64,000 nucleotides of DNA, taken from positions 393,142,001 to 393,206,000 of the forward strand of contig OZ024741.1 in NCBI GenBank assembly GCA_964016885.1. The letters run 5' to 3'. Under the pieces are notes generated by a model that was given only the letters and a program-made list of their open reading frames with translations, was not told the origin of the DNA and made no database searches. Source of the stretch: Eledone cirrhosa. Lineage: Eukaryota. The position numbers and the translations under genes are program-made. Shown here one piece after another: positions 5,023 to 52,223 of this stretch (position 1 is its first letter; every line of letters starts with the position of its first letter).

Positions 5023-5034
5023 AGATATATATAT

Positions 5035-6795: not shown

Positions 6796-6950
6796 AATAT
6801 CAGCTCTCTTCCCGATTGAACACCGTTTTCCTTTTGCTTTTTTCACACTTACTGATATTTCTACATATCCCCATCCTCATCATTTCCATTTAGCGTCAAT
6901 TCTTCTATGCTTGCATGGGTTAGACGGATATATATATATATATATATATA

Positions 6951-15390: not shown

Positions 15391-15451
15391 ATGAAATTTC
15401 ATTATTTTCTTTAACCTGGGCAATGCCAGGTACTTCTGCTAGTGTATATAT

Positions 15452-18918: not shown

Positions 18919-18959
<41 letters not shown>

Positions 18960-19081
18960 CAAAAGGGATATTTAATTTGTTGGTAATTCAACAAATATAT
19001 ATGTTTATAACTGATTTGAAGCACTTGACAGGATTTCTGGAGTATAATATTCAATGATATTAAATAAATGGAAACCATATT

Positions 19082-19142
19082 TATTCTATTATATATATTT
19101 CAAGGGTACCAACACTTTGGTACGCTCTCATCAGATAAAATA
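19082..19142 (-). ncRNA. Minimal type-I hammerhead ribozyme (inverted copy)
   Basis: Reverse complement of 19276-19336 with one change at the tip of stem II; intact CTGATGA/GAAA/TA core. Confidence 0.85.
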
Positions 19143-19275
19143 CAAAGTTTGTTTTATAAATATTGACATATCCAGGAAGATCTTAACGGTTCAAGTTTTT
19201 CCTGGATAGTCAGGAAAAACTTGAACCATTAAGATCTTCTTCCTGGTTATGTCAATATTTATAAAACAAACTTTG

Positions 19276-19336
19276 TATTTTATCTGATGAGAGCGTACCA
19301 AAGTTTTGGTACCCTTGAAATATATATAATAGAATA
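19276..19336 (+). ncRNA. Minimal type-I hammerhead ribozyme (Penelope-like)
   Basis: TATTTTAT-CTGATGA-GAGCGTACCAAA(GT)TTTGGTACCCTT-GAAA-T-ATAT-A-TA-ATAGAATA: 8-bp stem I, stem II with one C-C mismatch, intact core, AUA triplet, palindromic loop 3. Confidence 0.85.
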
Positions 19337-19381
19337 AATATGGTTTTATAAAAATAGTTTCCATTTATTTAATATCATTGA

Positions 19382-19415
<34 letters not shown>

Positions 19416-19424
19416 TTAAAAATT

Positions 19425-20477
19425 ATCATCATAATCATCATCGTTTAATGTTCATCAGAGGTAAGATGGGTCAGGTGACCATGTCATACTCATATAGAAC
19501 TGTTTCTGGCTAGGTTTCTACAGCTGGATGCCCTTCCTAATGCCAACCACATTTACAGTATGTGCTGGCTGCTTTTTGCCGTGATTCCTACACAACCACT
19601 TTAACAGTGTGGGCTGGGTGCTTTTTGTCGTTACACCTACACAACCACTTTAACAGTGTGGGCTGGGTGCTTTTTGTCGTGACACCTACACGACCACTTT
19701 ACAGTGTGGGCTGGGTGCTTTTTGTCGTTACACCTACACGACCACTTTACAGTGTGGGCTGGGTGCTTTTTGTCGTGACACCTACACGACCACTTTACAG
19801 TGTGGGCTGGGTGCTTTTTGTCATGACACCTACACAACTGCTTTACAGTGTGGGCTGGATATGTTTTGTTCACAGTGTAAGGGTGGTATGGACAGGAGTG
19901 GGTGAGTGGGGGTATAGTGGTTAAGAGGTGCCTACTAGGTGTATGTTTGAGTTTGTGCGCATAGGACGGCATGTCTTCTGAATTAAAACTCATCCTGTGT
20001 CATTGTCTTTGAAAGGTTTAGTTGCACAAGGTCTGCTTTTATCACCTCGTTCCAGATCTTTCTGGGCCATCCTACTCCAAGGTTTCCATCAATTTTGACT
20101 GCCCTGCACCTTTTTATACAACTGTCATCCTTCATACGCATCAGATGACCATACCAACGCAATCTCCTCTCTAGCATACTGCATCCGATCCCTCTTATGC
20201 CTAATTTCACACTTAGTTCATTTACACTTTGCCTTTACTTTGTATATTACTATTACACATCCATCAGAGCATGCATACTTCATTTCTTTCCAGTCTTCGT
20301 AGGTCCTCTGCACAGTGCCAGGTAACATTGATGTTCGTATATGTGCATCATACAATCTGCCCTTTATTTTAAGGAAAAAACGTTTTATAGTGGTAGTAAC
20401 TCTCTGAACTTTCTCCATCCCGTTCTTACTCTGGCTACTGTACTTTCAGAAAGCCCTCCTCAACTGCTGATTTCATC
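19425..20477 (-). mobile_element. RTE LINE 3' fragment with ~48-bp unit x6 in the 3'UTR (19552-19860)
   Basis: ORFs 19983..20210 and 20218..20418; tandem TTTACAGTGTGGGCTGGGTGCTTTTTGTCGTGACACCTACACGACCAC. Confidence 0.9.
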
Positions 20478-20753
20478 AAAAGAAATAAGTGACTATGTCA
20501 CTTATTTCTTTTCGGCGAAAGATGGGAGAGAAGCTGACAGTCTGTTTCATGCTTGTTGGTGTTCATCAGAGCCACGTACTCCTCTGCTTTCGTCGAAAAT
20601 CATAGAAGCTGGATTCTTATAGAATTCCAATAATAATCAGAAGCTGATTATACAGAGCGATTGCCAGTCCAGCAAAAATTAGGTATTAGAATTGGTGCTC
20701 TTGTCAGCTTCTCTCCCTTCTTTCGCCGAAAAGAAGTAAATGACATAGTCACT
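20478..20753. repeat. Inverted repeat (52-bp arms 20488-20539 / 20702-20753) plus a perfect 16-bp hairpin at 20478-20512
   Basis: Direct reading of complementary arms. Confidence 0.9.
20533..20572 (-). ncRNA. Degenerate minimal hammerhead (GUC site)
   Basis: GCT-CTGATGA-ACAC(CAACAA)GCAT-GAAA-CAG-A-CTG-TC-AGC. Stem II is restored as ACGC/GCGT if two CpG decays are reverted. Confidence 0.6.
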
Positions 20754-23479
20754 ACTTTAAAACTGATAGCGTATGGTCTTCTAAATGTTTTTAATTAAAC
20801 ATACGGTATATTGCCAAATATACTATACATACATTCATGTATACATCGCTATTTCAGAGCACCAATCCTAATATAGGTAGGTAAACAAATAGGTAGCTAT
20901 ATAGATAGATAGATCAATGTTTTTTCTTATTGTCCAAACTTCATATATATACATGTCTATATAAATAGAGGTTTAGTGTGTGCACACTGTATCATCTGGC
21001 CAGTGTGTGGTTCTATCATTTTGTTGATTTATCTGGGTTTCTCCCTATTCACTCTTTCTTTTCTTCTTTGTAGCTGCTTTCATTTCATTTTTAACCCTTT
21101 AGTTACCAATCTGGCCCAAACTGGCTCATTCTATGAAATAAAACCATCCGTTTTCAAGGTTTCCAATCTAAATTAAAATCTTCCAACATAATTTTATATA
21201 TGAACTTTACATATTTTAAAATATACCAAAGTTCTATATATCCTCTTTCAAAAGGAATTATCATAGTGCAAGTGTACAAACATTCAATGATACCTAGGTT
21301 TAAATGGATTGTCAAAGCTTTCTATTTATACAATAAATTATATATGCCACACTCATTTCCTCCTCTACCTTCCTATACTATCAGGGTTCTTAAGAAGTAG
21401 TGTAAGCCTGGTTTAATGCTGTTAACCAAATGGAAGATCAACTCTTTTGACAAGCCACCAGTCTATCACAGGTAGCATTCCCTGAAGATCTGGTACTTAT
21501 AACCTAGGCAATGCAAAATAAAGTGTTTTTCTAAATCCATAACTGAAACATTTACATCAGATGTAATTCTTACTGACCTGTCCACACAGAACTGCATTAG
21601 CAAAACATTATTGAAACGTAAAAAGCAACACTGTGACTGCATCACGTTAAAAATGAAAGTCTTTACTTTAATACTGCAAATTTTCACAATCTATCCACAT
21701 ATGAATTAGTAAACCTGGTTTGAAATATTTTATGTGAAATCATTACTAGTTGTATAAGTAGATACCGTAATATTGTATCTACTCAGTCACCTTATTTCTA
21801 TTATTGAACTAAAATAATTTCAAAATGACTGTTTTTTTTCAGGGCTTCTTATGTAATAAACAAGAAACCACTATGATTAGATCATCAACATGATGATCTA
21901 ATGAAGGGCAGAGGAAATAATTTATTCATTTGAGACCTTCCCTAAGAAATTACCTTCCAACAAATCAAATATCATTTTCATTAGTGTATGCCTAATTAAA
22001 AATGTAGATATATATTTAAAAGCATAATTTATCCTATAGAATGTAAGAGATGAAACAAGCATTACATATTCACATATAAATGTGAAAGCCTCACTTGCAA
22101 AATGCACTCATTAAGGAATTAAACAAAAACTTCCCTTGCTAGAAATAGCAACCAAATTCTCCTCAAACAACACCTTATCATCTTAAAAAAAGAAAGGACA
22201 CATTGTTTGAAATTAAGATGGAATGGACATGACTGGAATGTTGTGATCATGTTTTAGACCTAAAGCACTTAAGGCTAAACAATAACCGATGCATTCAAAA
22301 TGCTATTCTAAACAAACATTTACACACAAAACTGACAGAGGAAAGAAGCTTCAACACTCATAAAACGTAACTGTCTGATTTCTGATTTGACTGTTCCATA
22401 ACAAAGCCCCCTCATCATTTCTACAAGGCTCTACATTTTGTTAGTTTATTTTTAATGTTTCACCACCATGTTTTCATTTAATAAACTGGATAATTTTCGA
22501 TTAATTACATTTTCACTTTTTCATAAGCAATGTTGTGACATTCATCACTCGTATTATGTTTTTAATAATAAACTGAATAGTAACCACATTGACCATAACT
22601 TGTCTAGGCTCTCCTGGACAGAGGGAATATGTGAGTAGGGTGAGAGAGAGAGAGATGGCAGCTGTTTAAGAGAGAAGGAATTGGATATATCAGTTAGTAT
22701 GGAGTGCAGGAAGTAAAAGATACCATTGATGATGAGAGGAAAAGGTGTCTATGTGAAAATGGCTTAGTTAATAGTTTCAGAGAAATCAAAGCCTCCTTAG
22801 CAAAAGTAGTAGGAGGATAAAGCAAAACTCAATATTGAGGGTGTCAGTATTGTTTTGTGTGTCATATTAATGACTTTTTCACTAATTATGGGATAGAATG
22901 TATGTAATGACATCTGAAGAAGTGAAAAGTACATAAAACACATTTTTCTTAATGAGTTATTGATTGTTTAAGGCTAAAGTATTTTTCAGACCCCTAAAAA
23001 ATGTTAAAAAATTGCATCTTAAAATCTAGGTTACATGGAAATGATGATTATAGTTGTCGTTGCCAGTTGCATCATTGTTGTCATTGTCATCATCCTTATC
23101 ATTATTTTTACACCCGCTTTCCATGCTGGCATCAGTTGGACAAGTTGTCACATTCTGAGGCTTGACAGGTTTGATGACCTCATATTACTCATGTTCCCAT
23201 ATTTGGTATGATTTCTATAGCTTGGCATTACAGGGTGTACTAAGTGCATTTTTTCAAGGCACCAGCAATACCACTTTACAGAGTGGATTAGAAGCATTCT
23301 ATTGTAGCAACAGCACTAAAAACATTTTTACATAATAATCCAGAATGAAGAGTCCTGTCACATTCTTTATTGTTTTGGTTCAATTGCTTAATATTGTAAC
23401 CTTCAGTCTCTCATAAGGCTTTTTTATAATGCTGCTGTGGACAGGTCTTTTGAAATGTGACATATTGCGAGTGGGCTCT

Positions 23480-26400
23480 TTTCTGTATCATCTCTTTCAT
23501 GAGGTTATTTCTCACAACTTTGTCTCATGTCTTCTTTGGTCTCTCTCTCACACAGATTCCATCCATTTTAAGAGTTCGGCACATTTTTTTAAACAGCTCT
23601 CATTTTCCCTGTGCCCCACATGCCCATACCAGTGCAATCATCTCTCTTGCAAGCTACATTCAATTCCACTTATACTCAATTTTTATCTCGCTTCTCTTGT
23701 GCTCTATCGTTCATGCATACTAACATTACACATCTAGTGAAGCATGCTTGCTTTATTTCTTTTTAGCCATCACAAATCTTCTGCACTCAAGGACCATTTC
23801 ACACTGCAATGCAACATTTTAGTTTGAACACATTATATAATGTTCTTCAATCTGAGTGAGAAGCTTTTTGTTGCCAGCAGATGTAACTTTCTTCCACCCC
23901 ATCTTTACTCTGGCTACAACACTTTCAGTACATCCACCTCCAAGATTAATGAAATCACCTAGATAGCAGAAGCTTTCTACTACTTCTAGTGATCTTTCTC
24001 AGCATATGAAAGAACTTATTTCTTGAGTACCCTTACTGTTCACTACAACTGTGCATCTGCCACATAGTCTGCCTTTCTTGTCAGCCTACCTGTAATACCA
24101 CTACATCTCTTGTGTGTCCACTGACTACATTGTATGAAATTCCTACCTTCTCTTTTTCTACATATTGAGCATGGTCCTTTATGCTTACTACTAAAACCTT
24201 TGCCAGATCATCAGCATACAAGAGCTCCCACAGACAACCAGTCCTGAATTCCACTGGTATGGCCTGGAAGACAAATAGGAGCAGACTGAAGACTGAGCCT
24301 TAGTGGATCCCCACCTGCACACTAAACTCCTCATTGTACTCATTGCTGACTCTTACTTGTGCCTCTGTACATGGCCAGTGCAGCCCACACAAGCTAGTCC
24401 TCTATTTCTAATTTCCTAAGTGCCCACCAGATTACAGAGTCTGGCATTCTGTTAAAGGCCTTTTCCAGGTCAACCAATGCTAAATATAGTGCTTTACTCT
24501 TAGGTACTTTGCCTGCAGCTGTCTGACTAAAAAGATGGCATTGGTGATGTTTCCCCTGGACACAAAGCCAAATTAGTTTTGTCCCTAATCAGTTGCGCGA
24601 TAATTCTTTGTGACCTTCAAATCCTGATTCAATGGCTTGAACCTCCATAATTTCCTTTCTCTAATGTATCACCTTTACCCTTGTAACAGTTGACAATGAT
24701 GCTGCTATGCCAGTCATTGGGTATTACATCTTCCTTCACAACCTGATTAACTATGCCGTATGACTATTTTGTGGCCTATTCCACCAGATAGACTAAACCA
24801 TCACAGTAACAATCTCTGATGGGCCAGCTGGTTTTCCTATGTTGATATCCTTAACCGCTTTATCTACCATACTGCTGTCAACTTTGATGGCTGGTCCCTC
24901 AGGTCTACTTGGTATAAACCCTGACATTCCTATGAATTCTCATAGTAATACTTATATGCATCTTTCTTTTTGACATCAGTAAGTGAACAACTGTTATTCT
25001 GCACACACTTCTCTCCCACAACATTTCAGTTCCCATCATTTATGAAGATCATTAAATCGCAGCTCCAAGAACATCGTGAGCAGACCACCAGATAAGAGCA
25101 AGCTGGTTTCCGACCTGGGCACAGATGTTGCGACTAAATCTTTGCCCTTCGTCAGCTGCTAGAAGAACAAACACACTGTGGGCAGTGAATAGTGGTTTGT
25201 ATTCAAAGACTTGAGATACACCTTTGACTGTGTCAATTGCACCACCCTATGGAGATTGTTGGAAATCAAATAAGTGCCTCAGAAAATCATTGTGTTCCTA
25301 CACTTGGCCTATGTTGGTTCAACAGGCCTAGCTTGGATAAGAAATGACCTCTCCGAGGAATTCACCATCAGGACAGGCATGCGACAAAAAGATGTGGTTT
25401 TGCCTCTACTGTTCAATGTTAACATTGACAGCATCATACAGCAAGCTTTCAAAGGTTGAAATGGTGTACAATTTGATGGCAACAAATCCGTGACTGACCT
25501 TTTGCCTATGACAGCACCATTTTCACCGACAACGACGTCAAAGCAACAGAAATCTTACAGAACATTGCCCATTTCACTCGGCCTTATGGTCTCAGGATCA
25601 ATGCGAGCAAAAAAAAAGTTCTAACAACAGGTGGGTCACGGGCCATTGTTCATCTTGAAGGCATTCAATTTGAGATCCAGGAGTTCAAAATCTTGGCTCA
25701 CTGGTAGCAGAGAAAAAGTGGCGTCAACAGCAGAGATCAACTGTCGAATCAGGTTTGCGACTTCTGCGTTTCGATCCCTTCGATGTATGTCTGGAAGAAG
25801 CCTCATATCTCCCTAAGGACCAATATCCATCTTTTCTGTATGCTGGTTCGACCTGTCCTCTACAGCAGTGAGACGTGGACCATTCTCAAACAAGACCAGA
25901 ACAAGCTCAAGGTGTTCCAAATTTGATGTCTTTGTCAGATCCTTGGTGTCTCTCTATGCGACCAAATCTCAAACAACATCCAAGAACACTGCCAGCAGCA
26001 GCCAACCATTGAAGACCAAATCTGGCAACAGTGGTTTGACCACATCTGCAGGATGAGCATCAGAAGACTTCCACACCAACCTTTGTCATGACAGTGGCCC
26101 ATGCACTAGAAAATCCAGCACAGCGTACCAAAAAAGACATGGGCAAAACAAATCGAGGAGGACCTGAAATTGCAACGCCTCGATCTCAACCACACTAAGG
26201 TCAGTGCCATAGATAGAAAAGTGTGAAAGAACAATACCATTGGAGTCCATCATCCAGTGGCACGAGAGGAGCATATTGGTTGAAAGGACAGCCTCTCCCA
26301 ATTGCCAACTACGGATTGAAGATACTGTCTTATGATCCAGAACACTTCATACTTCTGATCCACACATTGCAGAACATTGGCAAACCTCATTCTTTCAGGC

Positions 26401-26575
26401 GCTTATCTTGTTAGATAGACCTGGCATCTGGCTTCTCTTCTAGCTACTTAATATAATTCCTCGCTATCCTTGGCCTTCAAAATTTTCAAAACCTGTCTCT
26501 TAGCTTTTATGGCCCTATCTACCGTACTGTTCCACCACCATGTCACCGTTGTTTGTCTGGTACCTTGCACCAATA
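23480..26575 (-). mobile_element. Old RTE LINE, interrupted by a plus-strand RTE-type LINE at ~25040-26320
   Basis: Minus-strand remnants (DWHSSIIVNCYKGKGD, LVDLEKAF, TWWWN) on both sides of a plus-strand RT (EQAGFRPG, G.RQ..V.LPLLFN, LYSSETW). Confidence 0.8.
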
Positions 26576-26843
26576 CATAGTTGAATATATTTTTAAATGT
26601 TTAAACATGCTTCAACATAAATCTAAAATCTTAGAAAGCATTTCTAAGTTACTCTGCGACATAATAGTGTATTAACTGCCCTATACACAACCAGAAAATA
26701 ACAATTGCATATTAAACAAGATGTACATTTTTGTCTCATGAATAAATATGCCACAGAATTAAAATGAAATGTATGACCAAAGCTATCAAACATCAAAATA
26801 ATAGGAATGGTGTTTATAAAATTATGAGAATTAAGATACTCAC

Positions 26844-26893
26844 CTGGTCGACGAGATAACTCCTGACGTCGAGAATTTGAACTTTCCTCATAT
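26844..26893 (-). CDS. CCDC9: CCDC9-like small exon ((E)YEESSNSRRQELSRRP)
   Basis: T-rich tract + TAG acceptor, CAG|GTGAGT donor, 50 nt, phase 2-1. In frame with the 45818-45999 exon; CpG-rich patch in AT-rich surroundings. Confidence 0.72.
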
Positions 26894-27429
26894 CTAAAAT
26901 TAAAAAATAAACTAAAATGAAAAATCCATCATTTTTACTCTTTCAATCAATTTATCTCTAATCTTACATTGATAATTGCCATTTTATAATCTTCAATCTA
27001 TTTTGAGGGCATATGAGTTTTATTTATTTCCTATATTCTTTATAATTTCTTCCATTACTTAAATTTTTTTCTTTTATCTTTTCATTCAGTTTGTTTCAGT
27101 TTTTAGTCACTAGCTTACTTATATAATGATTTATCACTTGTATTATGAAATGCAATTCCAGTGTTTGTCCCTTGGTACATTACCTTTTATATACACACAT
27201 CTACTGCATATATTTGTGATAGTTTTGTCTAACTGTGACAGCTAGTTACAAATTTTAGCCTCCATTTAGTTTAAATTGGTCAGATAAGCAGTTAAATTTG
27301 AACAATCCTTCTGAAACCTAAAATTCTAATCATTAATTTCATAGTCATCAGGCTACTTTTAATGATTAAATATTTCTAACCATAGTAAATATGATCTACT
27401 ATCCTCCCAGACTTAAAAGCCTTAGAGCT

Positions 27430-28300
27430 TGTCAAAATCACACAAATATAACTGAAACACCTAAGGCAATAACTACACCCACCAATAGCTACAACTACTT
27501 GCACCTATTATAATCAAATTTCCATAATAGGGAAATTTAGCAAAACAGTCATATCTCTAAAGCCCAACAAAGATTCAAGTGAAGTAGTGTCATGCAGAGT
27601 CAACACCTTAAAAGGTTTTAGAAAAGATCTTTGACATCAGTAACCCTCACATTTCTTTCACTAAATCACAATATGAATTCAAACCATTACATTCAACCAA
27701 CATGCCACACTCACAAACCTTACAAAAGACAACAACAACAAAACATTCTAATTACTACTGACATTAGCAAATCTTTCAATTCCATTTTCAACTATTCACT
27801 TATAAACAAAATACTCAAAAATATTTTCAGAATGGAATATCACAAATATGTCCACTCAACCAAATTTCTAAATCTATACTTACAAAACTTACCCACATCT
27901 CTAAACAGACAACCTTATACTCAGATGTTATTACAATCACATTCCTCCATCACTCTCTAGATACAACAGCAGAACTACTTTAACTACATTATATCACCTA
28001 GAAACCTGGCTTCACAACTAGACGTAATTCACTGTCTCCATTCTTACCAACAATACTAAAGAAGATGAAATACAACCATCCATCACAAAAACATATACAT
28101 ACATACTACATACATAAAAGACAAAAAATATCAGGAGTTCCATACAATATTACTTTACCATTCACAACACATACAGAAGACATAAGTAAAGAAAAACAAA
28201 GTAGAAATATACTTGACCATAAGGTTGCTTCATCAGAATTGACCTGGGGTTACACAACAATAACAACAAGCATACAAAAATAGACTGGACAGTAGAGAGT
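27430..28300 (+). mobile_element. Very degenerate Jockey/I-group LINE RT remnant
   Basis: LKPNKDSS...SCR (cf. LKPGKD..SYRP), ITTDISKSFNSI (cf. DISKAFDSV). Confidence 0.5.
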
Positions 28301-29291
28301 ACAATTTGTACATACTATCACACTTTATGCTATATGAATATTCACCATTACATATGAGAATGTGCAGTATGGTCTTCAGTCAACAGTAAGTCTTGAACAA
28401 TTGATTGCCTCTGTGCCATATATATGCTCAATCAGAACTAGCTGGCCTAGGGTTCACAATAAAAATAATAACATAAAATATTGATTTTTATTCATATATC
28501 ATCCCTGCCAGTGCCTTTCAAACAAGTACAACTCCTGTAAACATTGTGCACTACAAACTTCAAAATGACAAAGTGTCATGCAATATATGACAATAACTTG
28601 AGAGAAAAACATGCCATAAGATGAATAGGATGTAGTGTGCAGGAGGGAAGAATGTATTGATGCAGGCATATGATGCAAATGGAGGCTGACAGTTGGGGAA
28701 AGAAGTGTTATGAGATTGAATTGGAATTAACCCGCAGAAAAGAACACCTAGAAGGACATGGGACCATGATACATAACAAGACACTATGTTGGAGAATACC
28801 TGTCCAACAAAAGTAAGCATGAGAATACCAACATAAAAATAAACGTGATAATCATTTTATGGTCATTTTCCCTGATAGCAAGGGTTAAATGAGTTGTCAC
28901 AAATTAAATCAGTAGTGTTGGAGCTACTGACCTTTCATTCCCACACTCTTCAGAGTGTATTGGGTGCATGTTATTATGGCACCAGTTCTAAAGAAGTTGT
29001 CATGTTTATGACACAACTGAAGAGTCATTTTAAATAAGTTTGTCAGGTTTTCTACAACTGGATGCCCTTCCTATCAGTAACAACTTTACAGAGTGTAGTG
29101 AGTGTTTCTATTGTGTAGATAATAAACATGAGGGAGGTCGTCATACCTTTGACACAACTAAAGTGTCTTCTCAACCCACTTTTTGCTTGGTTTCTACAGC
29201 TGGATACCTTTCTCTCTCTCTATATATATATATATAGAGGGGGGGAGGGGAGAATTAAAGTTTTTACTCCAACATAGCTGTATAGATATAA

Positions 29292-29607
29292 GTATGTGAA
29301 TTTTGTATATCTAATGATATACGGTGTGTTTACAAATAAACATTTGAAAAGCTCTTTAACTATGAATATTGAAAAGCTGACAGCTAGTACCATCTAACGG
29401 ATTGCAGCAGAGAGCAGGACGGGGGAAACATTGTCCTGATGTCGGCCTGAGCCAGAAACGAGTTGGCAGTTATCCCCCTCTACTGCTTCTGCTGGGATCT
29501 GCTAAATGGCGCTAGCTGTCAGGTTTTCAATATTCATACCTAGAGGGCTTTCTGAATGTTTATTTCTAAACATACCATGTATCATTAGATATACAAAATT
29601 CACATAC
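29292..29607. repeat. Older foldback element with ~144-bp diverged arms
   Basis: GTATGTGAATTTTGTATATCTAATGATA... pairs with ...TATCATTAGATATACAAAATTCACATAC through to TTGTC/GGCAG. Confidence 0.9.
29432..29468 (+). ncRNA. Degenerate minimal hammerhead at the tip of a ~145-bp hairpin
   Basis: TGTC-CTGATGT-CGGC(CTGA)GCCA-GAAA-CGAG-TT-GGCA. One core change (A9>T); stem I is continuous with the foldback arms. Confidence 0.5.
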
Positions 29608-29807
29608 ATAGATATAAATTGAAGTAGTAGCTGCAATAGGGCAGATACCAATTAAATTATTTGAGGCAGTCACAGAGTACTCAATGGTGTGAAGAGTTAA
29701 TAAATTTTTCGACCAGAGTTAACACATGAAGTTATATAAGGGTGACGCTATGAACATATTGACAAGGTGTATGTAGGAATAGTAAATAACCACAACAACA
29801 AATTATA

Positions 29808-30811
29808 TATCATCATCATCATCAACGTTTAACGTCCGTGTTCCACGCTTGCGTGGGTTTGGACGGGGGTATTCCCACTTGAGGCAAGAGTGATTGTCTT
29901 GCTCGCATAGGACAGTCTGGCAGGTTTTCTACAGTTGGATGCCCTTCCTAACACCAACCACATTTACAGTGTGGGTCTGGGAGGTTTTTACCGTGTTGCC
30001 TACACGGCCACATTACAGCGTGGACTGTGTGTTTTTTGTCGTGACACCTACACGATCTCATTTGTTTCGGCCTGGATGGCGCGGCACCAACATAACTTTA
30101 CATAGAACGGGGTGGTGTGGATGGGGTGGGGGTGGTGGTGGTGGTGGGACGGGGTGTATTTTGTTAGAGATGCCTACTGGCAAGGCGGGTCTTCTCTATT
30201 ACTGAGTACCGCCAAAGGTCTCGGTCCAGTGACATTGTCTTGGTGAGGTGTAAGTGTGTGAGGTCGGTGTTTATCAGCTCGTCCCAGGTTTTTCTGGGTC
30301 TGCCTATTCCGTGGCTACCGTCTATCTTTATTGCCCTGCACTTTGTTATACAGCTATCATCCTTCATGCGCATCACGTGACCATACCAACGTAGCCTTCT
30401 CTCTAGTAAACAACATCTAATCCCTCTTATTTTTAATTTTTTCCTTAGTTCGTTTATGCTTTGTCGTTCACGTATATTACTATTACACATCCAGCGGAGC
30501 ATGCAAGCTTCGTTTCTCTCTAGTCTGCGTATATCCTCTGCACACAATGCCCAGGTCTCACCGCCATGCAACATTGCTGTTCGTATGCAGGCATCGTACA
30601 GCCTGCCTTTCATTTTTAGGGAGAACCCTTTAGCGGCTAATAGTGGTATAAGCTCTCTGAACTTTTTCCACCCAGTTCTGACTCTAGCTACTGTACTTTC
30701 AGAGCACCCTCCCCCACTGCTGATTTTGTCACCCAGGTAACGGAAGCTGTCCACTATTTCTATAGAACCCTCTGCGCAGTTGAAAGAGCTAGTATTTTGT
30801 GGGCACTTGCT
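29808..30811 (-). mobile_element. Same young RTE LINE family, shorter 3' fragment
   Basis: ORF 30164..30754 is nearly identical to the C-terminus of 6951..8504; same 3'UTR and tail. Confidence 0.96.
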
Positions 30812-31360
30812 ATATATATATGTAATGTGGCCGTGTAGGCAACACGGTAAAAACCTCCCAGACCCACACTGTAAATGTGGTTGGTGTTAGGAAGGGCATC
30901 CAACTGTATAAAACCTGCCAGACAGTCCTATGCGAGCAAGACAATCACTCTTGCCTCAAGTGGGACTACCCCCGTCCAAACCCATGCAAGCGTGGAACAC
31001 GGACGTTAAACGTTGATGATGATGATGATGATATAGTTATATATAGTTATACTTTTAGAGGGTCATGTTGCCAATAAAAACACACACACCTGTTGGTTTT
31101 CACTTCAATTTATTATAAATTTTACACACCTCTCCCATCAGAGTCCCCAGCCCACACTGTAAAGTGGTCATGTAGGTGGCATGACAAAAAGAACACACTG
31201 TAAATGTGGTTGGTGTTAGGAAGGGCATCCAGCCATAGAAAGCAGGTCAAAATCAGTTCTGTATGAGAAAAACAATGGGACAACTCATCTAACCCATGCT
31301 AGCGTGGAAAAATGAACATTAAATGGTGATGGTGATGATGATGATGATGATGATGATATA

Positions 31361-32597
31361 TGAGATAGTATCAAAACGTTTCTGTAGTGCACCAAAAATT
31401 GCAACACAAGATAGCGTTCACAGTGAGAGCTAGCAGTGGTCTACATGCACCAGTGAGCCAAGTGACATCACAGTGTTTACTTTGCAAATTGTGAAATTTG
31501 TGTTTTTGTGATTGCGTGTAGCCTGTAGCCTGCAATTCTTTCATGAACAGGAAGTTGGAACAAAGAGCCAATGTGAAATTTTGCATTCAACTTGTGAAGT
31601 CTGCCACAGAGACATTGGAGCATGCTCTGGCAAGCTTATGGCGAGGAGGCAATGAGTCGTACACAATGTTTTGAGTGGCCAAGATGATTCAAAAGTGGAA
31701 AAACACCCTTGCAATGCATGCCATGAGCGTCACTTCTGGAAATATAAAGAAAATTAATCAGCTTGTGCATCAGGATCGTCGGAGGACAACCAATGATATT
31801 GCTGTTGATGTTGGTCTGTCGTATGGGACTGTGCAGGCAATCCTAACATCTGAATTGAACAGGCAGCCTGTTGATGCCAAGTTTGTCCCCAGTCAGCTGA
31901 TAACTGAGCAGAAAGAACATCACGTCAAAGTCTGTCAAGATCTCCGTCAGTGTGCCACTGACGATCATCCATCATGTCGAGGATCATCTCTAGTGATGAG
32001 AGTTAGGTCTACAGGTACGACGCTGAGACAAAGCAGCAGTTGACACAGTGGAAAAGCCCTTCATCTCTATGACAGTAGATGGCACGAAATGCAAAGAATG
32101 TTCATTGTTTTTTTCAAAATCTGTGGATCAATAATTCACCCACCAAGGCAAGACCAGAGTTCTACTGCAACGTTTAGAGGTGCTTGAGGGAGGACATTCA
32201 GCGAAAGCAACCAGATCTGTGGAGCATGAAGAATTGGATTCTTCATGATGACAATGCACCCTGTCACCGAGCTCTCCGAGCTCATTTCGCCAAAAATAAC
32301 ATTGTATCACTTCTGCAGATTAGCACCTGCGGACTTGTATCTCTTCTCGAAGCTGAAAAGGCAGTTCAAAAGTCACTGTTTTAACACAATTGCCAAGATC
32401 CAGAGCAAATTGCAGAAGGTCTGACTCACTTATGGAAAATGACTGCCAGGTAGAATTCCAAAAGTGGCAGGAATGCTGGGACCAGTGTATTGCTGCACAA
32501 GGTGACTATTTTGAAGAAGGAGATGATGTTAAAACTTATGTAAATATATTATTTCTTTTAAACATAACTAGTCCAGGAACGTTTTGATACCATCTCA
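31361..32597 (+). mobile_element. Full-length degenerate mariner transposon
   Basis: TIRs TGAGATAGTATCAAAACGTTTCTG / CAGGAACGTTTTGATACCATCTCA, TA flanks; EQRANVKFC, LHDDNAPCH, LAPADLYLF.KLK remnants. Confidence 0.92.
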
Positions 32598-32607
32598 TAT
32601 ATATATA

Positions 32608-33286
32608 CAGGGTGCGGACAATATTTGTTCGCAATTTTCAACTGCTAAATTTATGCACATTTTTTTTTACTTCATAAAAACAGTGACTATATTTCCATTA
32701 TTTATTTTCAGAATAATTGATTATGAATAATTTTGAAACTCCAAATTTGTGGAAGAGACACAGAGTTCCTGAACATCGATGGCTACATCCGCATGCTGAG
32801 CGAGGTAGTAAAGCCCTGGATCGACCAGGTAGCTGCAGGTAGGCCGTACGTGGCAGCAAGACTCAGCGCCCTGCCATACCAGCCGAAAGACCCAAGCCTG
32901 GCTGTCAGAGAACTTCATCGACCACACTTCACCTGACATCTGGCCTCCCAGCTCGCCTGACTGCAACCCCCTCGACTTCTTTGTGTGGGGCGCAGTGGAA
33001 CGAGACACCAACAGATCTAGCTGCAATACGAAAGACAATCTGAAGGCCAGGATCACAAGTGCCTTTAGGGGCCTAAGTCGGGGGACAGTGACGAAGGCCT
33101 GTAGCCGGTTCCAAGGCCGCTTTGAGGCCGTCATCAAAGCCAATGGTGGGTTTATCGAGTGAGATTGAAAGAACAAGTCATGAAGATAAACTGACTCAAG
33201 TTTGATAAATAAATCTTAAAAAATAAAACTACTGTGTTATATTTTCCTAGACAGTAATCTTGCGAACAAATATCGTCCGTACCCTG
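32608..33286 (+). mobile_element. Internally deleted DD37D (maT-type) Tc1/mariner element
   Basis: 27-bp TIRs CAGGGTGCGGACAATATTTGTTCGCAA, TA TSD; QQDSAPCH...WPPSSPDCNPLD with 37 residues between the Asp residues. Confidence 0.92.
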
Positions 33287-33299
33287 TATATATATAGTT

Positions 33300-36200
33300 C
33301 CAAGGTTACTAGGCTGAAAATGTGGCAGTGGGAATGAGCTTGCACTGCTCAAAAAATGCTCCTCACGGTGTGTGCCTCAAATAACTTCTGGCAACCAAGT
33401 CCAACTCCTAGCCTCCTCCTCTGACAGGAGAAGGGGCGTAGGCAGGCTCTGGCACCTTCAAACTCGTGCTCCGGGTATATGGAGCTCGTCAGCCTAGGGG
33501 GGCAGTCCATCTAAAAGAAAGCAAACACTGAACTCAAACGTCTGCTGCTTTGCAGCTATACACACTTATGGGAAAGATTTCAGGAGTACACCCCGAGGAT
33601 AAATCTGGAGCCAGAATCCCTAAGGCAGTTCGATGTAATATCCAACTTCATTCTGGCAACGACTGTGGCCCCCACCAGTGTTAAGTTGTACTGGCCTCTG
33701 TTTTTATCCTTGGACAACTGCCGATATCCCATAAAATCTTGCCAGGCCTGTGCCCTGGAGAGGTTATGCCAATGTCGCTCATTGTAGTAGCAAAACATAG
33801 AAAGCAGCAGTCTACCGGATATAAGTCTGCACATGATTGGCGTATGAGCAAGGCGGCAGGGGCTGCTTTTGATGGAGAGAGAGGCCATTGTGCCTCACTG
33901 GACAGCTACTGCCCACCTCAAGCTGGGCAGCCCCCAGCCAGTACGGTGCTGTCCAAATGCACAACTGGGTGTGTGGGGCTTAGGGATATTAATTAATACA
34001 CTGAATCGTGACTGCAAACACTGCACCAAGAAAAACAATGAATAAACAAACAAACAATGTAAGACACTGGCATTCAGACTTGGATGTTGGAATATATGCA
34101 CCCTGACTACTGGTCATGCCATATGACCTTCAAAAGATCAGTGACAGCCGCAAAACAGCAGTTATCAACAACAAATTGCTATGAATTCGAGTGGACATTG
34201 CAGTGCTTCATAAGACACAGCTCCCACATCTGGGGACCCTTCGTGAGAGAGAATATACCTTTTTCTGGCAGGTAAAGGCATAGATAAAGCTAAAGATAAT
34301 GGTAACATCTTTGCCGTGAGGAATTCACTGTTGAATATGGAGGAACTCGGTAGCAACGGCTCGGAACAGATCCTCTCACTCTGATTGTACACTTCAGATG
34401 GGCCTGTCAACCATGTCAGTGCTTATGTCCCAACCCTCTATTCCACACAAGACGACAAGGATAAAGTTTCACAATCAGCTTTCTAGAAAAATACAGGCGA
34501 TCCCACATGGTGAACAGCTGATGCTACTTGGCAACTTCAATGCCAGAGTGGGAGCTGACCATGACTCCTGGACAGTGTTGGGATGGCATAGGGTCAGTAA
34601 CATGAATGACAACAGGCAACGATTGTTTGAGCTCTGTATGCTCCATGGACTATGTGTCACCAACACCTACTCCGAAGCCAAAGTTCAGCACAAAGTTTCC
34701 TGGAATCATCCTTGTTCAGGGCACTGGCACCAGCTAGATCTGATCTTCACAAGACACAACCACTTGAGAGATGTACTTCTGACTCGGTCCTTTTAGACTG
34801 CTGACTGTGACACAGATCACTCTCTGGTTTGCTTCAATCTCAAACCAAAAATGATACTCTATGCCAAGCCTCTGGACAGGCAACATATCAATGCTACTGC
34901 AATGTAGTAGTCAGTCACAGTAGCTACATTCATCAAGTCTCTGGAAGATGCCCTCCTTGCAGACCCACGAGAAGGTGATGTTCAGCAAAGATGAGATTCT
35001 CTCAGAGGCACTATCCATGACACTGCATTGAAGAACTTCGGGAAGATGCAAAGAATCCCACATGACTGGTTTGAGGCGAGTCAGGATGAGCTCATTGTGA
35101 CCATGGAGCACGCTGCTCTGTTGAAGTACAAACACCAACCCACAAAGGCAATGCTCAAGCATTGACATCAGCTAGAAACAAAACACAAAAGATTGCGAGG
35201 CACTGTGCAAATGACTACTGGTTACAGCTATGTGAAGGCATCTAGCTGTCATTTGATACCATTCGGGGAATGTATGAGGGCATCAAGAAAGCCATCGGCC
35301 CAACCCAGAGCAAGATGGCCCCACTCAAATCCAGAACGGGTGAGGGCATCAAAGGCAGTTGGAGAGATGGGTGAAATATTACTCCAAACTCTACGGCAAG
35401 GAAAACAGTTTCTCGGACAACCCGCTAGACACAGTCGAACACCTACCCATCATGGAGGGGCTAGATGCATTGCCAACTGTTGAAGAACTGTGCAGAGCCA
35501 TTGATGGCTTACCTGCTAGGAAGGCACTAGGGTCTGATGCCATCCTCCCAGAGGTCACCAGGTGTGCAAAGGGAGTCCTACTTAGCCACTTGTTGAAAGT
35601 ACTATGTCAATGCTGGGAAGAAGGAACAGTCCTGGAAGACATGAGGGACTGTAACATTGTTACCCTCTATAAGAGTAAAGGGGACAGAAACAATTGCAAT
35701 AGCTACTGGGGCATCTCGCTCCTAAGTATTGTTGGGAAGGTCTTTGCCTGCATGGTCTTGAACAGACTACAGAAAATCACTGAGCGGGTATACCCCAAAT
35801 CTCAGTGTAGTTTCAGGTCAGAACACTCCACCATTGACATGATCTTCTCCCTTCAACAGCTACAGGAGAGGTACCAAGCACAAAGGCAGCCACTCTACAT
35901 CACCTTCATCGTCCTCATGAAAACATTCAATCTAGTTAGTGGGGACAGCCTGTTCAAAATCATTGCCAGGATTTGTTGTCCTCCAAGGCTTCTTAGGATA
36001 GTCCAGTCGTTTCATGCAGATATGTAAGGTGTAATTCAATTTGATAACTCTTATTCAGAGGCATTTAACATAGTGGTGTGAAGCAGATCTGTGTGCTGGC
36101 CCCCACCCTGTTAGGCATCTTTTTCACAGTCATATTAAAACATGCATTTGGAGAGTCAACTGAAGGTGTCTACCTCCTCACCAGATCAGACGGGAAGCTG

Positions 36201-36560
36201 TCTAGTCTGTCAAGGTTGAAAGCGAGATCTAAGGTTTGTCAGGTACTCATCAGAGAAATGCCATTTGCAGATGATGTAGCACTGGCAGCACACTCTAAGG
36301 AGCAAATGCAGCACCTCATGAACAAACTTTTGAGAGCCTGCTAAAAATTCAGCTTGACCATTAGTCTGAAGAAAACCAATGTACTGGGCCAAAGTGTCAA
36401 GTACCCCCCACCACCATCACCATCAACAACTATGAGCCACAAATTCCCCTACTTTGTTTGGCTCCTCTATCACTGACCACCTCTCCCTGACCCTGAGATC
36501 GGCCGGAGAATTGGACGAACAACCTCTACAGGCTGACAAAGAGAGTCTGGGAGAAAGAAA
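33300..36560 (+). mobile_element. Near-full-length degenerate RTE (BovB-like) LINE, different family
   Basis: APE motifs (YTFFWQ, LLGNFNARVG, HWHQLDLI, TDH) and RT motifs (YWGISLLSIVGK, LAPTLLGIFF, FADD); many stops. Confidence 0.88.
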
Positions 36561-36564
36561 ACTA

Positions 36565-37610
36565 ACCACAAATACCAACATTTGAAAAATTTAGCAAATA
36601 TAAAGACCTGGAAATAAAGATTGGAAAAATGTGGAAGTTGAGAGTTAAAACAATACCAGTGGTTGTAGGTGCTCTAGGAATGATACCCAAGGGGGCTAAA
36701 CCTGCATATAGAAGAAATACAAAAGATAGTACTAATGGGAACTGACCATATACTAAAGAAAATTCTGTTAAGATGAGTATTTCACAAGTGGAAACACCTC
36801 TAAAGATACATGTGTATATGTGTGTGTTTTTGCTTGAACATGGCAGACCTTGTTGTCTAGAGAGATCAAGGCCAACCAACCAGATATTATAGTCAAAGAC
36901 CACAAAGAAAAAAATGCCTTCTAATAGATGTATCTAGCCCCACAGACGACACTATATCTTCCAATGAAATAGAGAAACTCTCCAAATATAAAGATCTAGA
37001 GATAGAAATAACTCAAATGTGGAAAATGAAAACAGAAACAATACCTATAATAATAGGTGCTCTAGGAATGATAAAAAAACACACAGACAAATACATAGTC
37101 AAAACCCCAGGACTTACAAATATATACAGCATGCAGAAGATAGCACTACTAGGCACTGCACACATATGAAAAGTACTATCAATACAATAGAAATAACACC
37201 AGCAAAAAACTACACTGCTCATACCCAAGGCACACAGAGCTGTGCTCGGTAAAGCAGTAATGATGCGCAATAAAAATAATGGAAATAATAATAATAATAA
37301 TAATAATAATAAGATCAACATAACAAGGTCTGTTTATTGATAGATATGAGCATCCCATGTGATCACAATATCGCGGCAAAAGAATTTGACAAGCTACGAA
37401 AATATAAAGATCTGCTTATTGAAATTGAGAAAATGTGGCACCTCTAGGCCGTTACAATACCAGTAATTGTGGGGGGGACTGGGAATGATCAAGAAAGGAA
37501 CAGAACAATATTTGCGAATGATTCCTGGTTTACCCTCTCTGCACGAGGTGCAAAAAATTGTTTTGACTGGTACTGCATACGTATTTAGAAGAGCACTATC
37601 TCTGTAAGAT
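36565..37610 (+). mobile_element. Three adjacent 3' fragments of R4/Dong-like LINEs (REL endonuclease)
   Basis: NQPDIIVKD...LIDVS.P...EKLSKYKDLEIEI..MW...TIP+++GALG repeated three times; (AAT)n at 37284-37311. Confidence 0.8.
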
Positions 37611-37724
37611 TGATATCCCTCCTTGTATTTACATATGCATATATGCATATATGTATGTATATATGTATACTGTTTTTTTTTTTGTTTTTTTTTTAATTAT
37701 AGCCCACACTACAAACATGATTTA

Positions 37725-38657
37725 TGCTTAGGAAGGGCATCCAACAGTTGAAAATCCCAGCCAAAACAGAGTCCTGCTATGAGCAAAGTGCGATACGGAC
37801 AACTGACTAGACCTCCACCCATGATGGTACCAGTCCCATGGCGCCAAACTTGCCTCATAAGTGGGACCACCCAGTCCTACACTGTTTAAGTTAGTTGGTG
37901 TTAAGAAAGGCACCCAGGTCCCATTATGTGAAAGGTCCAGCGCAGCCAACTGGCCACACCTTCCTCATAATATGTCCACCCAGCTCCCAAAATATGGTTC
38001 AGCTATGAGCAGAGTACAGCGCATCCAACTTACTAGACCATCCACATAATGGGACCACCCAATTCCATAGTTCTGCTATGAGCAGGGTACAGCGTGGCCA
38101 ACTGGTCAGACCCTCCTCATAACAAGACCACCTAGTTCCATACTGTAAACGTGGTTGCTGTTAGGAAGGATATCGAGCAGCTATAAAAACCCAGCTGAAA
38201 TGTGATCCAGTGTGAGCAAGGTACAGCGCAATTAACTGGCCAGATTTGTCTTATAAGTGAAACCATCCAGTCCTACACTGTAAACGTGGTTGGTGTTAGG
38301 AAGGGCATCCAGCAGCTGTAAACACCCAGCCAAAACATGGTCCTGTATGAGCAAGGTCTAGCACTGCCAACTGGCAGTACCACACTGTTAGAAAGGACAC
38401 CTAGCAGCCATAAAACTCACCTCACAAATATGGATCCACTTATGAGCAGGGTATGGAACGGCTAATTGGCCTGACTGCTCTCATAACGGGACCACCCAGC
38501 TCCAAACGGTTGGTGTTAGGAAGGGCATCCAGCTGTAAAAATCCCAGCCAAAATGCAGTTCCATTTGAGCAAGGTACAGCGTGGCCAACTGACAAGACTT
38601 GCCTCATAACGTGTATGACCCATCTGACCCATGCAAGCATAGAAAATAAGACATTAA
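37725..38657 (+). repeat. Degenerate tandem array of SINE/RTE-tail-like units
   Basis: Repeated GTTAGGAAGGGCATCCAGC..AAAA.CCCAGCCAAAA..ATGAGCAAGGTACAGC..GGCCAACTGG..GGGACCACCCAG. Confidence 0.75.
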
Positions 38658-38854
38658 CCCTTTAGCATTTACATTACTCTATATTTACTATTATACTTTC
38701 ATGGTAAAGGCTTTACCTCACATAATATCAAATCTATGAGATTCATTTTGAGAACAATAGCTTAACATCACAATGAGTGGCCAGTTACAGCTGGTTTAAA
38801 CAGAAAGAGGCGAGAGAATTCTGGCCAGATATGACCAGTTTAAATACTAAAGGG
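38658..38854. mobile_element. piggyBac-like MITE
   Basis: TTAA|CCCTTTAGCATTTA ... TAAATACTAAAGGG|TTAA, inserted into a SINE/RTE tail. Confidence 0.8.
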
Positions 38855-38872
38855 TTAAATGGTGATGATGAT

Positions 38873-38910
<38 letters not shown>

Positions 38911-39453
38911 CTAACACATTTATGACTGTTTGGTTAAGAAGTTTGCTTCGCAAACACAAAGTTTTAGGTTCAAGCTATGGACATAGCATTTTCGGTAAAT
39001 GTCTTTGACAATCTTAGACCAACCAATGCAAAGGAATTTGGTAGGTGGAAACTGAGGAAACATGTTGTATATGTCTGTGTATCCCCATGCTTCTTAATAT
39101 CAACCATATTTAAAAGAGTGACAATTGTTTATGTCTTGCATAAACAAAACCCCATAGCTTAACAGTATGACAGAGTGCAGCAGTATATACATATTTAAAA
39201 ATAAAGTTGGTGTCAGAAAGGGCATTCAGCTGAAAGAAAACTACCTCAAAAGAATTTTGTCTAACACAAAACCAACATGAAAGAGTAGGTGATTATGATA
39301 TATATATATATATTTAAAAGTTAAACAAGGTTCAATGAATACATCAAAGAATGAGTTTTACAATAGATTGGAAGCACTCAACAGTAATGGTTTTCCAGAG
39401 TTATTAATATTAATTCAAAATATTAACAAAATAGATATTCTTGTGATCAAGTA

Positions 39454-39520
39454 TATTTTATTATACATATTTCAGAGGTACTGAGTTAAGTTCAACAGTA
39501 TGTCCTCATCAGATAAAATA
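39454..39520 (-). ncRNA. Minimal type-I hammerhead ribozyme (inverted copy, sense to the CCDC9 pre-mRNA)
   Basis: Reverse complement of 39624-39690 with one CpG-type change in stem II; core intact. Confidence 0.8.
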
Positions 39521-39623
39521 AGATGATGCATGACATACCCTGACATAGTAGATGGTTAAGATTCATGACTACCATGACTGAATCTTAACCATCTACTATG
39601 TCAGGGTATGTCATGCATCATCT

Positions 39624-39690
39624 TATTTTATCTGATGAGGACGTACTGTTGAACTTAACTCAGTACCTCTGAAATATGTATAATAAAATA
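39624..39690 (+). ncRNA. Minimal type-I hammerhead ribozyme
   Basis: TATTTTAT-CTGATGA-GGACGTACTG(TTGAACTTAACT)CAGTACCTCT-GAAA-T-ATGT-A-TA-ATAAAATA: perfect 8-bp stem I, stem II with C-C mismatch. Confidence 0.85.
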
Positions 39691-39730
39691 TACTTGATCA
39701 CAAGAATATCTACTTTGTTAATATTTTGAA

Positions 39731-39780
<50 letters not shown>

Positions 39781-50866: not shown

Positions 50867-50927
50867 TATTTTATCTGATGAGAGCATACTAAAAATGTTG
50901 GTACCCTTGAATATATATAATAAAATA
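50867..50927 (+). ncRNA. Degenerate hammerhead of the 19.1-19.3 kb family (GAAA shortened to GAA)
   Basis: TATTTTAT-CTGATGA-GAGCATACTAAAAATGTTGGTACCCTT-GAA-TATATATA-ATAAAATA; flanks similar to 19211-19370. Confidence 0.7.
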
Positions 50928-50953
50928 AATATGGTTTTATAAAGATAGTTTCC

Positions 50954-51075
50954 ATTTAGTTTATAACAGATTAGAAGCAATCTACAGGATTTTTTCTGGA
51001 GTATAATATTAATATTATTGATATTATACTCCAGAAAAAATCTGTAGAGTGCTTCTAATCTGTTATAAACTAAAT
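50954..51075. repeat. Inverted repeat (~56-bp arms) of the same family as 18960-19060
   Basis: ATTTAGTTTATAACAGATTAGAAGCA...CTGGAGTATAATAT / ATATTATACTCCAG...TGCTTCTAATCTGTTATAAACTAAAT. Confidence 0.85.
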
Positions 51076-52223
51076 TTGTTGAATAACCAACAAATTAAAT
51101 AACTCATTGCTTATAGATATTGGTGTTCTTGACAATATCCAAATGTAGTAAAGGAATGAGGTTAAAATGTATCACTTTAAAAAATTATATCTTTAGTTAT
51201 AAAAACATTTTACTAAATGCTACTTGTCTTATATAGCTGTTCTATTGTGTCTTTACTAGTTCTATGAAACAAAGCCACCCATTTTAAAGTGCTCCAATTT
51301 ACATTAAAATCTTCCATCATTATCATCATCATTTAAGGTTTTCTCTGTTAGTCAGTACTCAAGTGATGTCACTGACTTTTCTGATGAGCTAGGGGTATGC
51401 ATCTTGCTTACATATATTCCATACTCTACGAAGTGCATTTTCTCATAACACTAGCACTAAGGAGATTGTCATGTCTTTGATACAACTAAAGAGACCATCC
51501 AACCCTTTGTTTCGCAAGCTGTCTTTGGCCTGATGCCTTTCCTACCATCAACCATTTTGCAGAGGGAACTGGGTGTTTTTATCATGTACATCACTAACAC
51601 TAGGGAAGTTGTCATGTCTTTGACACAACTGAAGAGACTATCCAACCCTTTGGCAAGCTTTCTACGGCTGTACTGGGTGTGTTTATCCTGTAGAATACCA
51701 ACACTAGAGAGGCTGTTATGTCATTGATACAACTGAAAAGTCCTCTGGACCCTTTCTAGCAGGATACCCTTCCTATCGCCAACCATTTATAGGGTACACT
51801 GGATGCATTTTTCATGGCACCAGCACTAGACAGGTTGTCAGTCATTGACTCATCTGTAAAGACTTTTCAACCCTATGGGAGAGACGGAAGATAATATTAT
51901 TGGTGTATGATGAGTGTGGTGCAATTTAACAGGGTGATGAGTAGGAGAGGGGTGTGACCTTCGATAGCATGAGGGATCATTAAAATTGCTAAGGTAACTT
52001 TCTATCGTCCTCACTTTTTTATTCTTCTATCTACTTTCTCAAATTCTTATTACGTTGACATGTTTACCTAACACACATTGTTGAGCTTTCAAATAACCAA
52101 ACTTATTTCCTAGTCATATTTATGTCATATTCCACAATGCTTCAAGCAAACTACAACATTCTATATGTATTCACACACACATATATACACATGCACTTAC
52201 ATATATATATATATATATATATA

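Follow-up and report, generated by a model that had tools for sequence, protein, structure and literature searches.

We analysed a stretch of 64,000 nucleotides from Eledone cirrhosa (NCBI GenBank assembly GCA_964016885.1, contig OZ024741.1, positions 393,142,001 to 393,206,000 of the forward strand; hereafter, the window), in which two fold-back hairpins, element 1 (19047-19385) and element 2 (39407-39737), carry a hammerhead ribozyme motif on each strand. The features of the two elements and of their flanks are given below, with the strand in brackets.

18928..18957 (no strand): (TA)n target tract at the tail end of element 1
18958..19046 (-): unduplicated 3' tail of element 1, ~90 nt, homologous to 51015-51118 (76/109 columns)
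19021..19043 (-): tail stem-loop variant of element 1 (ACTC, 3-bp inner stem, 2-nt bulge, AAGTGC), starting at the short-arm end
19047..19205 (-): tail-side arm of element 1, lacking 14 nt (distal helix I strand) that the other arm and the 50.9-kb copy retain
19082..19142 (-): type I hammerhead motif of element 1, core 19134, predicted cut after 19090 (AUA)
19206..19209 (+): loop of element 1, 4 nt, closed by G-T, on a native imperfect stem-loop
19210..19385 (+): inverted (short-end) arm of element 1, entering (TA)n 19382-19399
19276..19336 (+): type I hammerhead motif of element 1, core 19284, predicted cut after 19328
39298..39313 (no strand): (TA)n target tract at the tail end of element 2
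39314..39406 (-): unduplicated 3' tail of element 2, 93 nt
39374..39401 (-): tail stem-loop variant of element 2 (ACTC ... TT GAGTGC), 5 nt past the short-arm end
39407..39565 (-): tail-side arm of element 2
39454..39520 (-): type I hammerhead motif of element 2, core 39512, private A-C in stem II, predicted cut after 39462
39566..39578 (+): loop of element 2, 13 nt, sense strand of element sequence just upstream of the tail-side arm stop
39579..39737 (+): inverted (short-end) arm of element 2, entering (TA)n 39734-39777
39624..39690 (+): type I hammerhead motif of element 2, core 39632, predicted cut after 39682

Hairpins, tails and hammerhead motifs

Fold prediction gave -230.9 kcal/mol (z -32.8) for the hairpin of element 1 and -257.1 kcal/mol (z -43.7) for that of element 2, which bears out the two near-perfect hairpins reported in a preliminary description of this DNA. 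As also reported there, neither hairpin holds an open reading frame (ORF), the longest stop-free frames being 57 and 30 amino acids. The arms of element 2 are 2 substitutions apart over 159 nt, and both differences appear private; its 13-nt loop is element sequence, with no spacer. One 14-nt indel, one 3-nt indel and 3 substitutions separate the arms of element 1, and the 14 nt missing from its left arm are the 3' strand of distal helix I. The native stem-loop at the loop site of element 1 is still unfolded in a related copy at 50.8 kb, described below.

Tracts of (TA)n were observed at both outer ends of both elements. The left tracts (18928-18957 and 39298-39313) lie 90-93 nt outside each hairpin; therefore, the flank between tract and hairpin belongs to the element, as a one-sided, unduplicated tail. 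The earlier placing of the hairpins between (TA)n tracts was thus right as to the tracts, but the left one bounds the hairpin together with its tail. The likeness of the left flanks, noticed before, is real (61/105 columns in a global alignment, with a score barely above those of 200 shuffles) and is that of the element tails.

A loose scan of both strands for CTGAnGA...GAAA gave 20 matches in the window. Four of them are in the hairpin arms, one per arm and pointing outward, at 19134(-), 19284(+), 39512(-) and 39632(+). With a strict type I descriptor, 3 sites remained in the window, each of them within one of these arms, and 100 block shuffles gave 0. The motif at 39512(-) fails this descriptor by a single A-C mismatch in stem II (39501 T>C), a private change that nearly all other copies in short-read contigs lack. 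The four cores and the 8-bp stem I, paired in all four arm motifs, therefore agree with the intact, outward-pointing hammerhead per arm of the preliminary description, but the stem II of 39512(-) does not. In the element 1 family, stem I extends beyond an internal loop into a distal helix. The type I core (CUGAnGA, GAAA, UH) and helices I-III are present, and across five aligned motifs 68 of 70 cells are paired; three stem II pairs are compensatory between the element 1 and element 2 families, a count behind which stand only two independent families. No hammerhead family of Rfam was matched in the window, in a single arm or in 9 relatives; there were only sub-threshold miRNA-like matches, produced by the hairpins. 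Loose CTGACGA...GAAA cores at 25107-25155 (-) and 63282-63316 (+) fail the descriptor and are possibly decayed hammerheads.

When the ribozyme fold was forced within the full hairpin, the predicted penalty was ~80 and ~100 kcal/mol for the two elements. Read-through RNA is predicted to fold as one long hairpin, which would bury the ribozyme. Because the hammerheads of the arms sit on opposite strands, the two ribozymes of one hairpin cannot form the same-strand dimer needed by minimal motifs, and for the same reason the tandem-dimer test suggested earlier cannot use both arms of one hairpin. Related minimal motifs cleave weakly, as dimers or with protein (PMC4209133, PMC11167929).

Related loci in the window and in short-read contigs

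Besides the two hairpins, the window holds three further related loci and an endonuclease remnant that likely belongs with one of them.

5025..6830 (-): separate Hydra-clade element, at (TA)n, with a degenerate hammerhead at 5115-5085 and a reverse transcriptase (RT)-thumb/GIY-YIG remnant at 6410-5503
12752..12941 (+): short asymmetric fold-back of the 5025-6830 family, between (TA)n tracts, with a tail
49401..49584 (+): remnant of the C-terminal part of a GIY-YIG endonuclease of Hydra type, beginning at (TA)n 49387-49399, on the hammerhead strand
50785..51118 (+): third copy, element 1 family, 81-89% identical, with one hammerhead (core 50875) in which GAAA is reduced to GAA

Two family members had been claimed, and both are confirmed, but the third at 50785-51118 was overlooked. 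Its tail region is inverted at 50954-51075, with a fold point unlike that of element 1, and its tail motif is at 51028-51052. Upstream, this copy extends beyond the point at which element 1 folds, and at the site of that fold it has a native imperfect stem-loop (50780-50822) of -7.1 kcal/mol as DNA, a value reached by none of 500 shuffles. The endonuclease remnant at 49401..49584, upstream of the third copy, scored 20.1 (iE 1.7e-5), against 5.6 for the best of 10 controls, and likely belongs with the element 1 family. At 49800-50790 (+), G is nearly absent from about 1 kb of the sense strand (1-9 per 100 nt), which resembles the untranslated region (UTR) of the 5-kb element; this stretch is possibly a long 3' UTR.

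The element at 5025-6830 carries an inverted copy of its pseudo-long terminal repeat (pLTR) at 6396-6800 (+), followed by a tail of ~30 nt with a variant of the tail motif. Remnants of an ORF of RT and C-terminal GIY-YIG with a CxCX5C linker are present for this family; for the element 1 family there is only the remnant 1.3 kb upstream of the third copy, and for the element 2 family no RT/GIY-YIG ORF remnant was seen within the 64-kb window. The remnant at 5.7 kb is 39-46% identical to five RT/GIY-YIG proteins, and it fits the Hydra-clade alignments in the CxCX5C linker and in FAPHFSL, which is common to Hydra-1_Obim (PMC8557442). A Pfam scan did not recognise its GIY-YIG portion, 5745-6125. 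Arm divergence did not separate one template from two: the differences in element 2 appear private, as stated above, and the old arms at 5 kb, matching each other in 99/118 positions and the 12.8-kb copy in 106/122 and 97/119, are mutually no closer. A tail and an inverted truncated copy between (TA)n tracts are found at four of the five related loci examined in the window; the fifth, at 50.8 kb, is differently inverted and has one hammerhead.

We also noted a further Hydra-type GIY-YIG remnant at 10096-10398 (+) (score 57), behind which no hammerhead was seen, and an older fold-back at 29283-29705, with 129-nt arms of 83% identity, beside (TA)n 29222-29236. The latter has a decayed hammerhead-like core near 29437, and the best match to the tail-motif model described below (E 0.0006) is at 29673-29705 (-) within it. 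The window also holds recent copies of a long interspersed element (LINE) at 6924-8504, 30164-30886, 52114-53271 and 17387-17845, with an RT followed by a PHD-like finger (Pfam RVT_1, PHD), which we take to be RTE-like. An abundant repeat with tandem units of 48-49 nt or 112 nt ending in (ATG)n (19534-19870, 15451-15726, 53433-53906 and others) is likely the 3' end, or the short interspersed element (SINE) partner, of this LINE.

Contigs of 4 of the 17 listed short-read runs were placed on 39280-39600 at 82% likeness; none of the listed runs is of RNA, which carries no information on expression. Bins 39280-39326 were excluded as repeat, and the tail end of element 2 is outside the read mapping. 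In run X1, which may come from the source sample, there were 2,881 pieces, with a summed depth of up to 765,000, while single joints had a depth of 5-32. The element 2 family is clearly very abundant, although depth is no copy number. We obtained 15 listed joints, each in 1-2 contigs and with sides of 20-49 nt, from a list that is incomplete and biased by the reference given. Inversions account for 13 of them and deletions for 2; none is a go-back joint as expected of a head-to-tail tandem. No two of the 13 inversion joints depart from the antisense arm at one and the same position; 8 of these positions are within the tail, and in all 13 the sense arm begins further upstream than the antisense arm ends. 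The letters between the joint sides indicate that the true sense-arm starts scatter, and the fold points lie on element sequence capable of pairing. An outer end recurs: the end of the short arm, 39407, is joined to (TA)n in 5 X1 contigs and also in a single contig of X5, which has another organism label. In loose ends from three organism labels, the element runs past 39565 as the reverse complement of the loop (11 of the 13 first letters in register); one of these loose ends is of 180 nt. At the edge of the loop the summed depth comes to 1,187-1,728, less than 1% of the family peak, though hairpins may be under-sequenced. The symmetric hairpin looks like a minor form of an abundant family; of the abundance proposed earlier, the part concerning the element 2 family holds, but that concerning the hairpin itself seems not to.

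Coding relatives and a twin stem-loop

From an alignment of the five RT/GIY-YIG proteins we collected metagenome loci and retained the best 77 of 265 confirmed among 600 candidates. A sense hammerhead follows the ORF in 22 of the 61 relatives having at least 150 nt downstream. Stem I of element 2 is identical in two of the relatives (L048/L050) and nearly so in L044 and L064; an exact hammerhead pattern had 0 matches in the metagenome contigs. Partial tandem pLTR-ORF-pLTR copies occur among the relatives (e.g. L003, L019, L045). One metagenome relative (L069:1413-3188) has a long inverted duplication around a 5' truncation.

The pLTRs of the relatives share a stem-loop, GCTC-stem-YT-GAGCAC, with a stem of 3 bp and a bulge of 2 nt, found 56 times in sense and once on the other strand, in 36 of the 77 loci. 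Just before the ORF, among the 28 loci with 130 nt upstream, two copies were found in 16, one in 5 and none in 7; the twin copies are 59-79 nt apart, directly before the ORF. Covariation was seen in the inner stem (30 cells altered on both sides among 24 copies, 0/500 shuffles). The twin GCTC...GAGCAC stem-loop is seen, for instance, 14-110 nt before the ORF in L003, L011, L025, L042, L045 and other loci.

We compared 3' copies with the 5' pLTR in 27 cases, of which 6 stop at the contig end and 6 enter the ORF. Of the 15 that remain, 7 stop 0-4 nt before motif copy 1 or 2, a single insertion accounting for two of the 7; another 2 end 2-5 nt ahead of a GCTC identified by eye, and in 6 the match breaks off earlier from other causes. 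The stem-loop motif may set the two priming sites.

The tails of element 1, element 2 and the third copy carry a variant, ACTC...RAGTGC, which in elements 1 and 2 lies 0-5 nt beyond the short-arm end. This pattern was drawn up after these sequences had been seen; model R1 was built from the coding relatives alone. With R1, the tail of element 2 ranked 4 (10.6 bits, E 1.1) and the tail at 6.8 kb ranked 3 (E 0.32), and the tail motif of element 1 was unlisted at E<=10. The link of the tail variant to the motif of the relatives is suggested by position and pairing. For these elements, neither the twin motif nor twin priming was found to be described in the literature searched, which does not cover closed journals. 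The motif is visible in deposited Hydra consensus sequences, and the part of the accompanying text that was available does not comment on it.

Origin of the hairpins

Both hairpins most probably derive, as short, 5'-truncated, head-to-head insertions into (TA)n, from the 3' end (pLTR) of Hydra-clade Penelope-like retrotransposons, the part that bears the hammerhead. A Penelope-like origin is favoured because of the tail, the (TA)n targets, the GIY-YIG remnants of the window and the similar hammerheads behind coding relatives; the same evidence upholds the option, raised in the preliminary description, of very short Penelope-like insertions with an inverted copy. The two hairpin families are new families of an already known Penelope-like kind.

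The C-terminal endonuclease-positive (EN+) elements of the Hydra clade (Craig et al. 2021, PMC8557442) share the (TA)n target and a type I hammerhead ~90-200 nt from the 3' ends, which has G-U at the stem II base and a helix III that is short and palindromic. Such a helix III, together with G-U or U-U in that place, is usual in Hydra-clade motifs (PMC8557442 File S2). Penelope-13_HM of the same study has an inverted 5'-truncated copy with a hammerhead on each strand, as here, and an inverted truncated copy plus tail is a published layout (PMC8557442, PMC8969392). Unlike the Hydra clade, the two hairpins have no ORF, and A-U replaces C-G after GAAA; the hammerhead sequence also differs from that of Hydra-1_Obim, these being other families. 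The study of minimal hammerheads in metazoan Penelope-like elements by Cervera and de la Pena 2014 (PMC4209133) describes a long helix II, a tiny palindromic helix III and a predicted need for a dimer, as here, and ascribes minimal hammerhead pairs on opposite strands, 100-700 bp apart, to truncated elements. Compared with those hammerheads, helix I is longer here (8 bp, plus the distal helix in the element 1 family), and G10.1-U11.1 stands in place of a conserved G-C. The Penelope families of Adineta vaga (Arkhipova et al. 2013, PMC3846280) likewise have an inverted pLTR, a tail on one copy and an inversion palindrome, and head-to-head inversions with junction palindromes were interpreted there as self-priming; in contrast, the insertion here is reduced to its two ends, and the target is a microsatellite, so a duplication is unreadable. 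The animal non-LTR retrozymes (Cervera and de la Pena 2020, PMC7229834) are, as here, non-coding, 150-450 nt long, low in GC and Penelope-linked, with a type I hammerhead. They are built as head-to-tail tandems, with the hammerheads on a single strand and with release of monomers and circles (PMC7229834; bioRxiv 10.64898/2026.07.22.740005), whereas the hairpins are head-to-head and have one hammerhead on each strand. A non-LTR retrozyme tandem was rejected on these opposite strands and on the missing go-back joint among the 15 joints of an incomplete list.

Several observations weigh against an origin as truncated Penelope-like insertions. No full-length partner of either family was seen in the 64-kb window, no genome-wide search having been made, and none of the 77 coding relatives resembles the arms at the DNA level (blastn E<=0.01). 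Between the remnant at 49401 and the hammerhead lie 1.3 kb, compared with 87-533 nt in the relatives, and also (TA)n 50275-50288; the remnant may thus be a separate insertion. The tails of 90-93 nt exceed the 30-40 nt published for Hydra-clade elements (PMC8557442) and the 59-79 nt motif spacing of the relatives. With model R1, the tail motif of element 2 falls short of significance (E 1.1), and those of element 1 and the third copy are unlisted. Both hairpins are nearly equal in size, one contig spans the loop with 10 differences, and near-identical folds recur at some loci. Finally, 39565-39574 is where 11 of the 15 listed joints pass into the sense arm, which is in part due to a reference that included just 35 nt of the second arm.

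An alternative reading is a short SINE-like, non-autonomous Penelope-like family, in which a single pLTR-sized RNA has a fixed 5' end near 260-280 nt, no long parent is co-transcribed and the hairpin forms only at insertion. Both long arms are ~250-260 nt, sense arms often begin near 39565-39590, and elements 1 and 2 have no adjoining ORF. Such a start is overrun by the loose ends in the three organism labels, and the third copy extends upstream past the fold of element 1, via the G-poor stretch, to the endonuclease remnant. We regard this reading as unlikely; its mechanism is common to that of truncated insertions, and the template alone differs.

Considerably less probable is the other option of the preliminary description, a discrete non-autonomous family whose double-hammerhead hairpin would be transcribed entire and mobilised again, as one unit, by an enzyme of Penelope-like type. 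The near-equal sizes come from two diverged families, the 11 of 15 entries fall within 10 nt, the loop-edge depth is above the level of a single locus with one contig crossing the loop, and non-autonomous Penelope-like derivatives exist (PMC8557442; bioRxiv 10.64898/2026.07.22.740005). However, the left ends differ in all 13 listed inversion joints, the junctions are different again in the third copy and at the 5-kb and 12.8-kb loci, and the loop-edge depth is, within the limits stated above, under 1% of the family peak. A hairpin RNA would be a poor template with its ribozyme hidden, and a native snap-back stem-loop would by itself be expected to give recurrent folds. Recurrence of the fold-back boundaries had been put forward as a check on this option, which fails it: the inner joints are scattered, both between loci of the window and in the 13 inversions listed, and it is the outer ends that recur.

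A fold-back DNA transposon or miniature inverted-repeat transposable element (MITE) of the Tc1/mariner type with a TA target, containing a hammerhead by chance, would explain long inverted repeats that end in TA, but was rejected as scarcely credible on its one-sided tail, homologous between families, its variable inner junctions in place of symmetric fixed termini and a uniform interior, its retroelement-type hammerhead and tail motif, and the coding GIY-YIG neighbours with the same layout. A sequencing or assembly fold-back artefact, compatible with the fact that none of the listed contigs spans the whole stretch, was dismissed just as firmly, given the diverged arms (indels, substitutions), the older fold-backs with 82-83% arms in the same window and the many inversion joints of the family in short-read contigs.

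For truncated head-to-head insertion, the following course may be envisaged. An autonomous partner would supply RT and the GIY-YIG endonuclease, and the enzyme of the element would cut the (TA)n tract; insertion was likely one event, with reverse transcription folding back on itself. Priming of cDNA would take place from both cut ends, at the end of the tail for one and ~90 nt farther inward for the other, in each case immediately 5' of a stem-loop motif. Symmetric hairpins would arise when one cDNA snaps back at a native stem-loop, and asymmetric copies when two cDNAs are joined by microhomology. Fold-back of a single cDNA accounts for element 1, whose native loop is on the tail arm. It fails for element 2 (native loop on the other arm), for the 5-kb locus (second arm 1 kb longer) and for the asymmetric joints; therefore, a second primer or a later deletion is needed in these cases. 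We lean slightly towards double-ended priming. For an anole element, both target strands are cut and extended in vitro, and two RT starts bound the tail; a dimer was predicted, and ribozyme cleavage was dispensable (PMC11167929).

A fuller proposal is offered tentatively, with rather more doubt than confidence. A dimeric RT-endonuclease would bind the twin stem-loop, and cDNA would start a few bases 5' of each copy, on each end of the double-strand cut in (TA)n. Double-ended priming, and not the ribozyme, would then fix the outer ends, create the tail and yield head-to-head hairpins, the hairpins being the shortest products.

The doubled ribozyme would be a by-product of insertion. The hairpin copies are probably dead on arrival, because they have one ribozyme per strand, buried in the predicted read-through hairpin. 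For annotation, it is relevant that such hairpins mimic MITEs and miRNA precursors and that Rfam misses their ribozymes. The formation of tandem and inverted insertions was called an open question (PMC8557442). The twin stem-loop, a short motif with covariation that predicts the two insertion ends by its two copies, is directly testable in the in vitro system of PMC11167929. If read through, the hairpins are likely a large source of double-stranded RNA.

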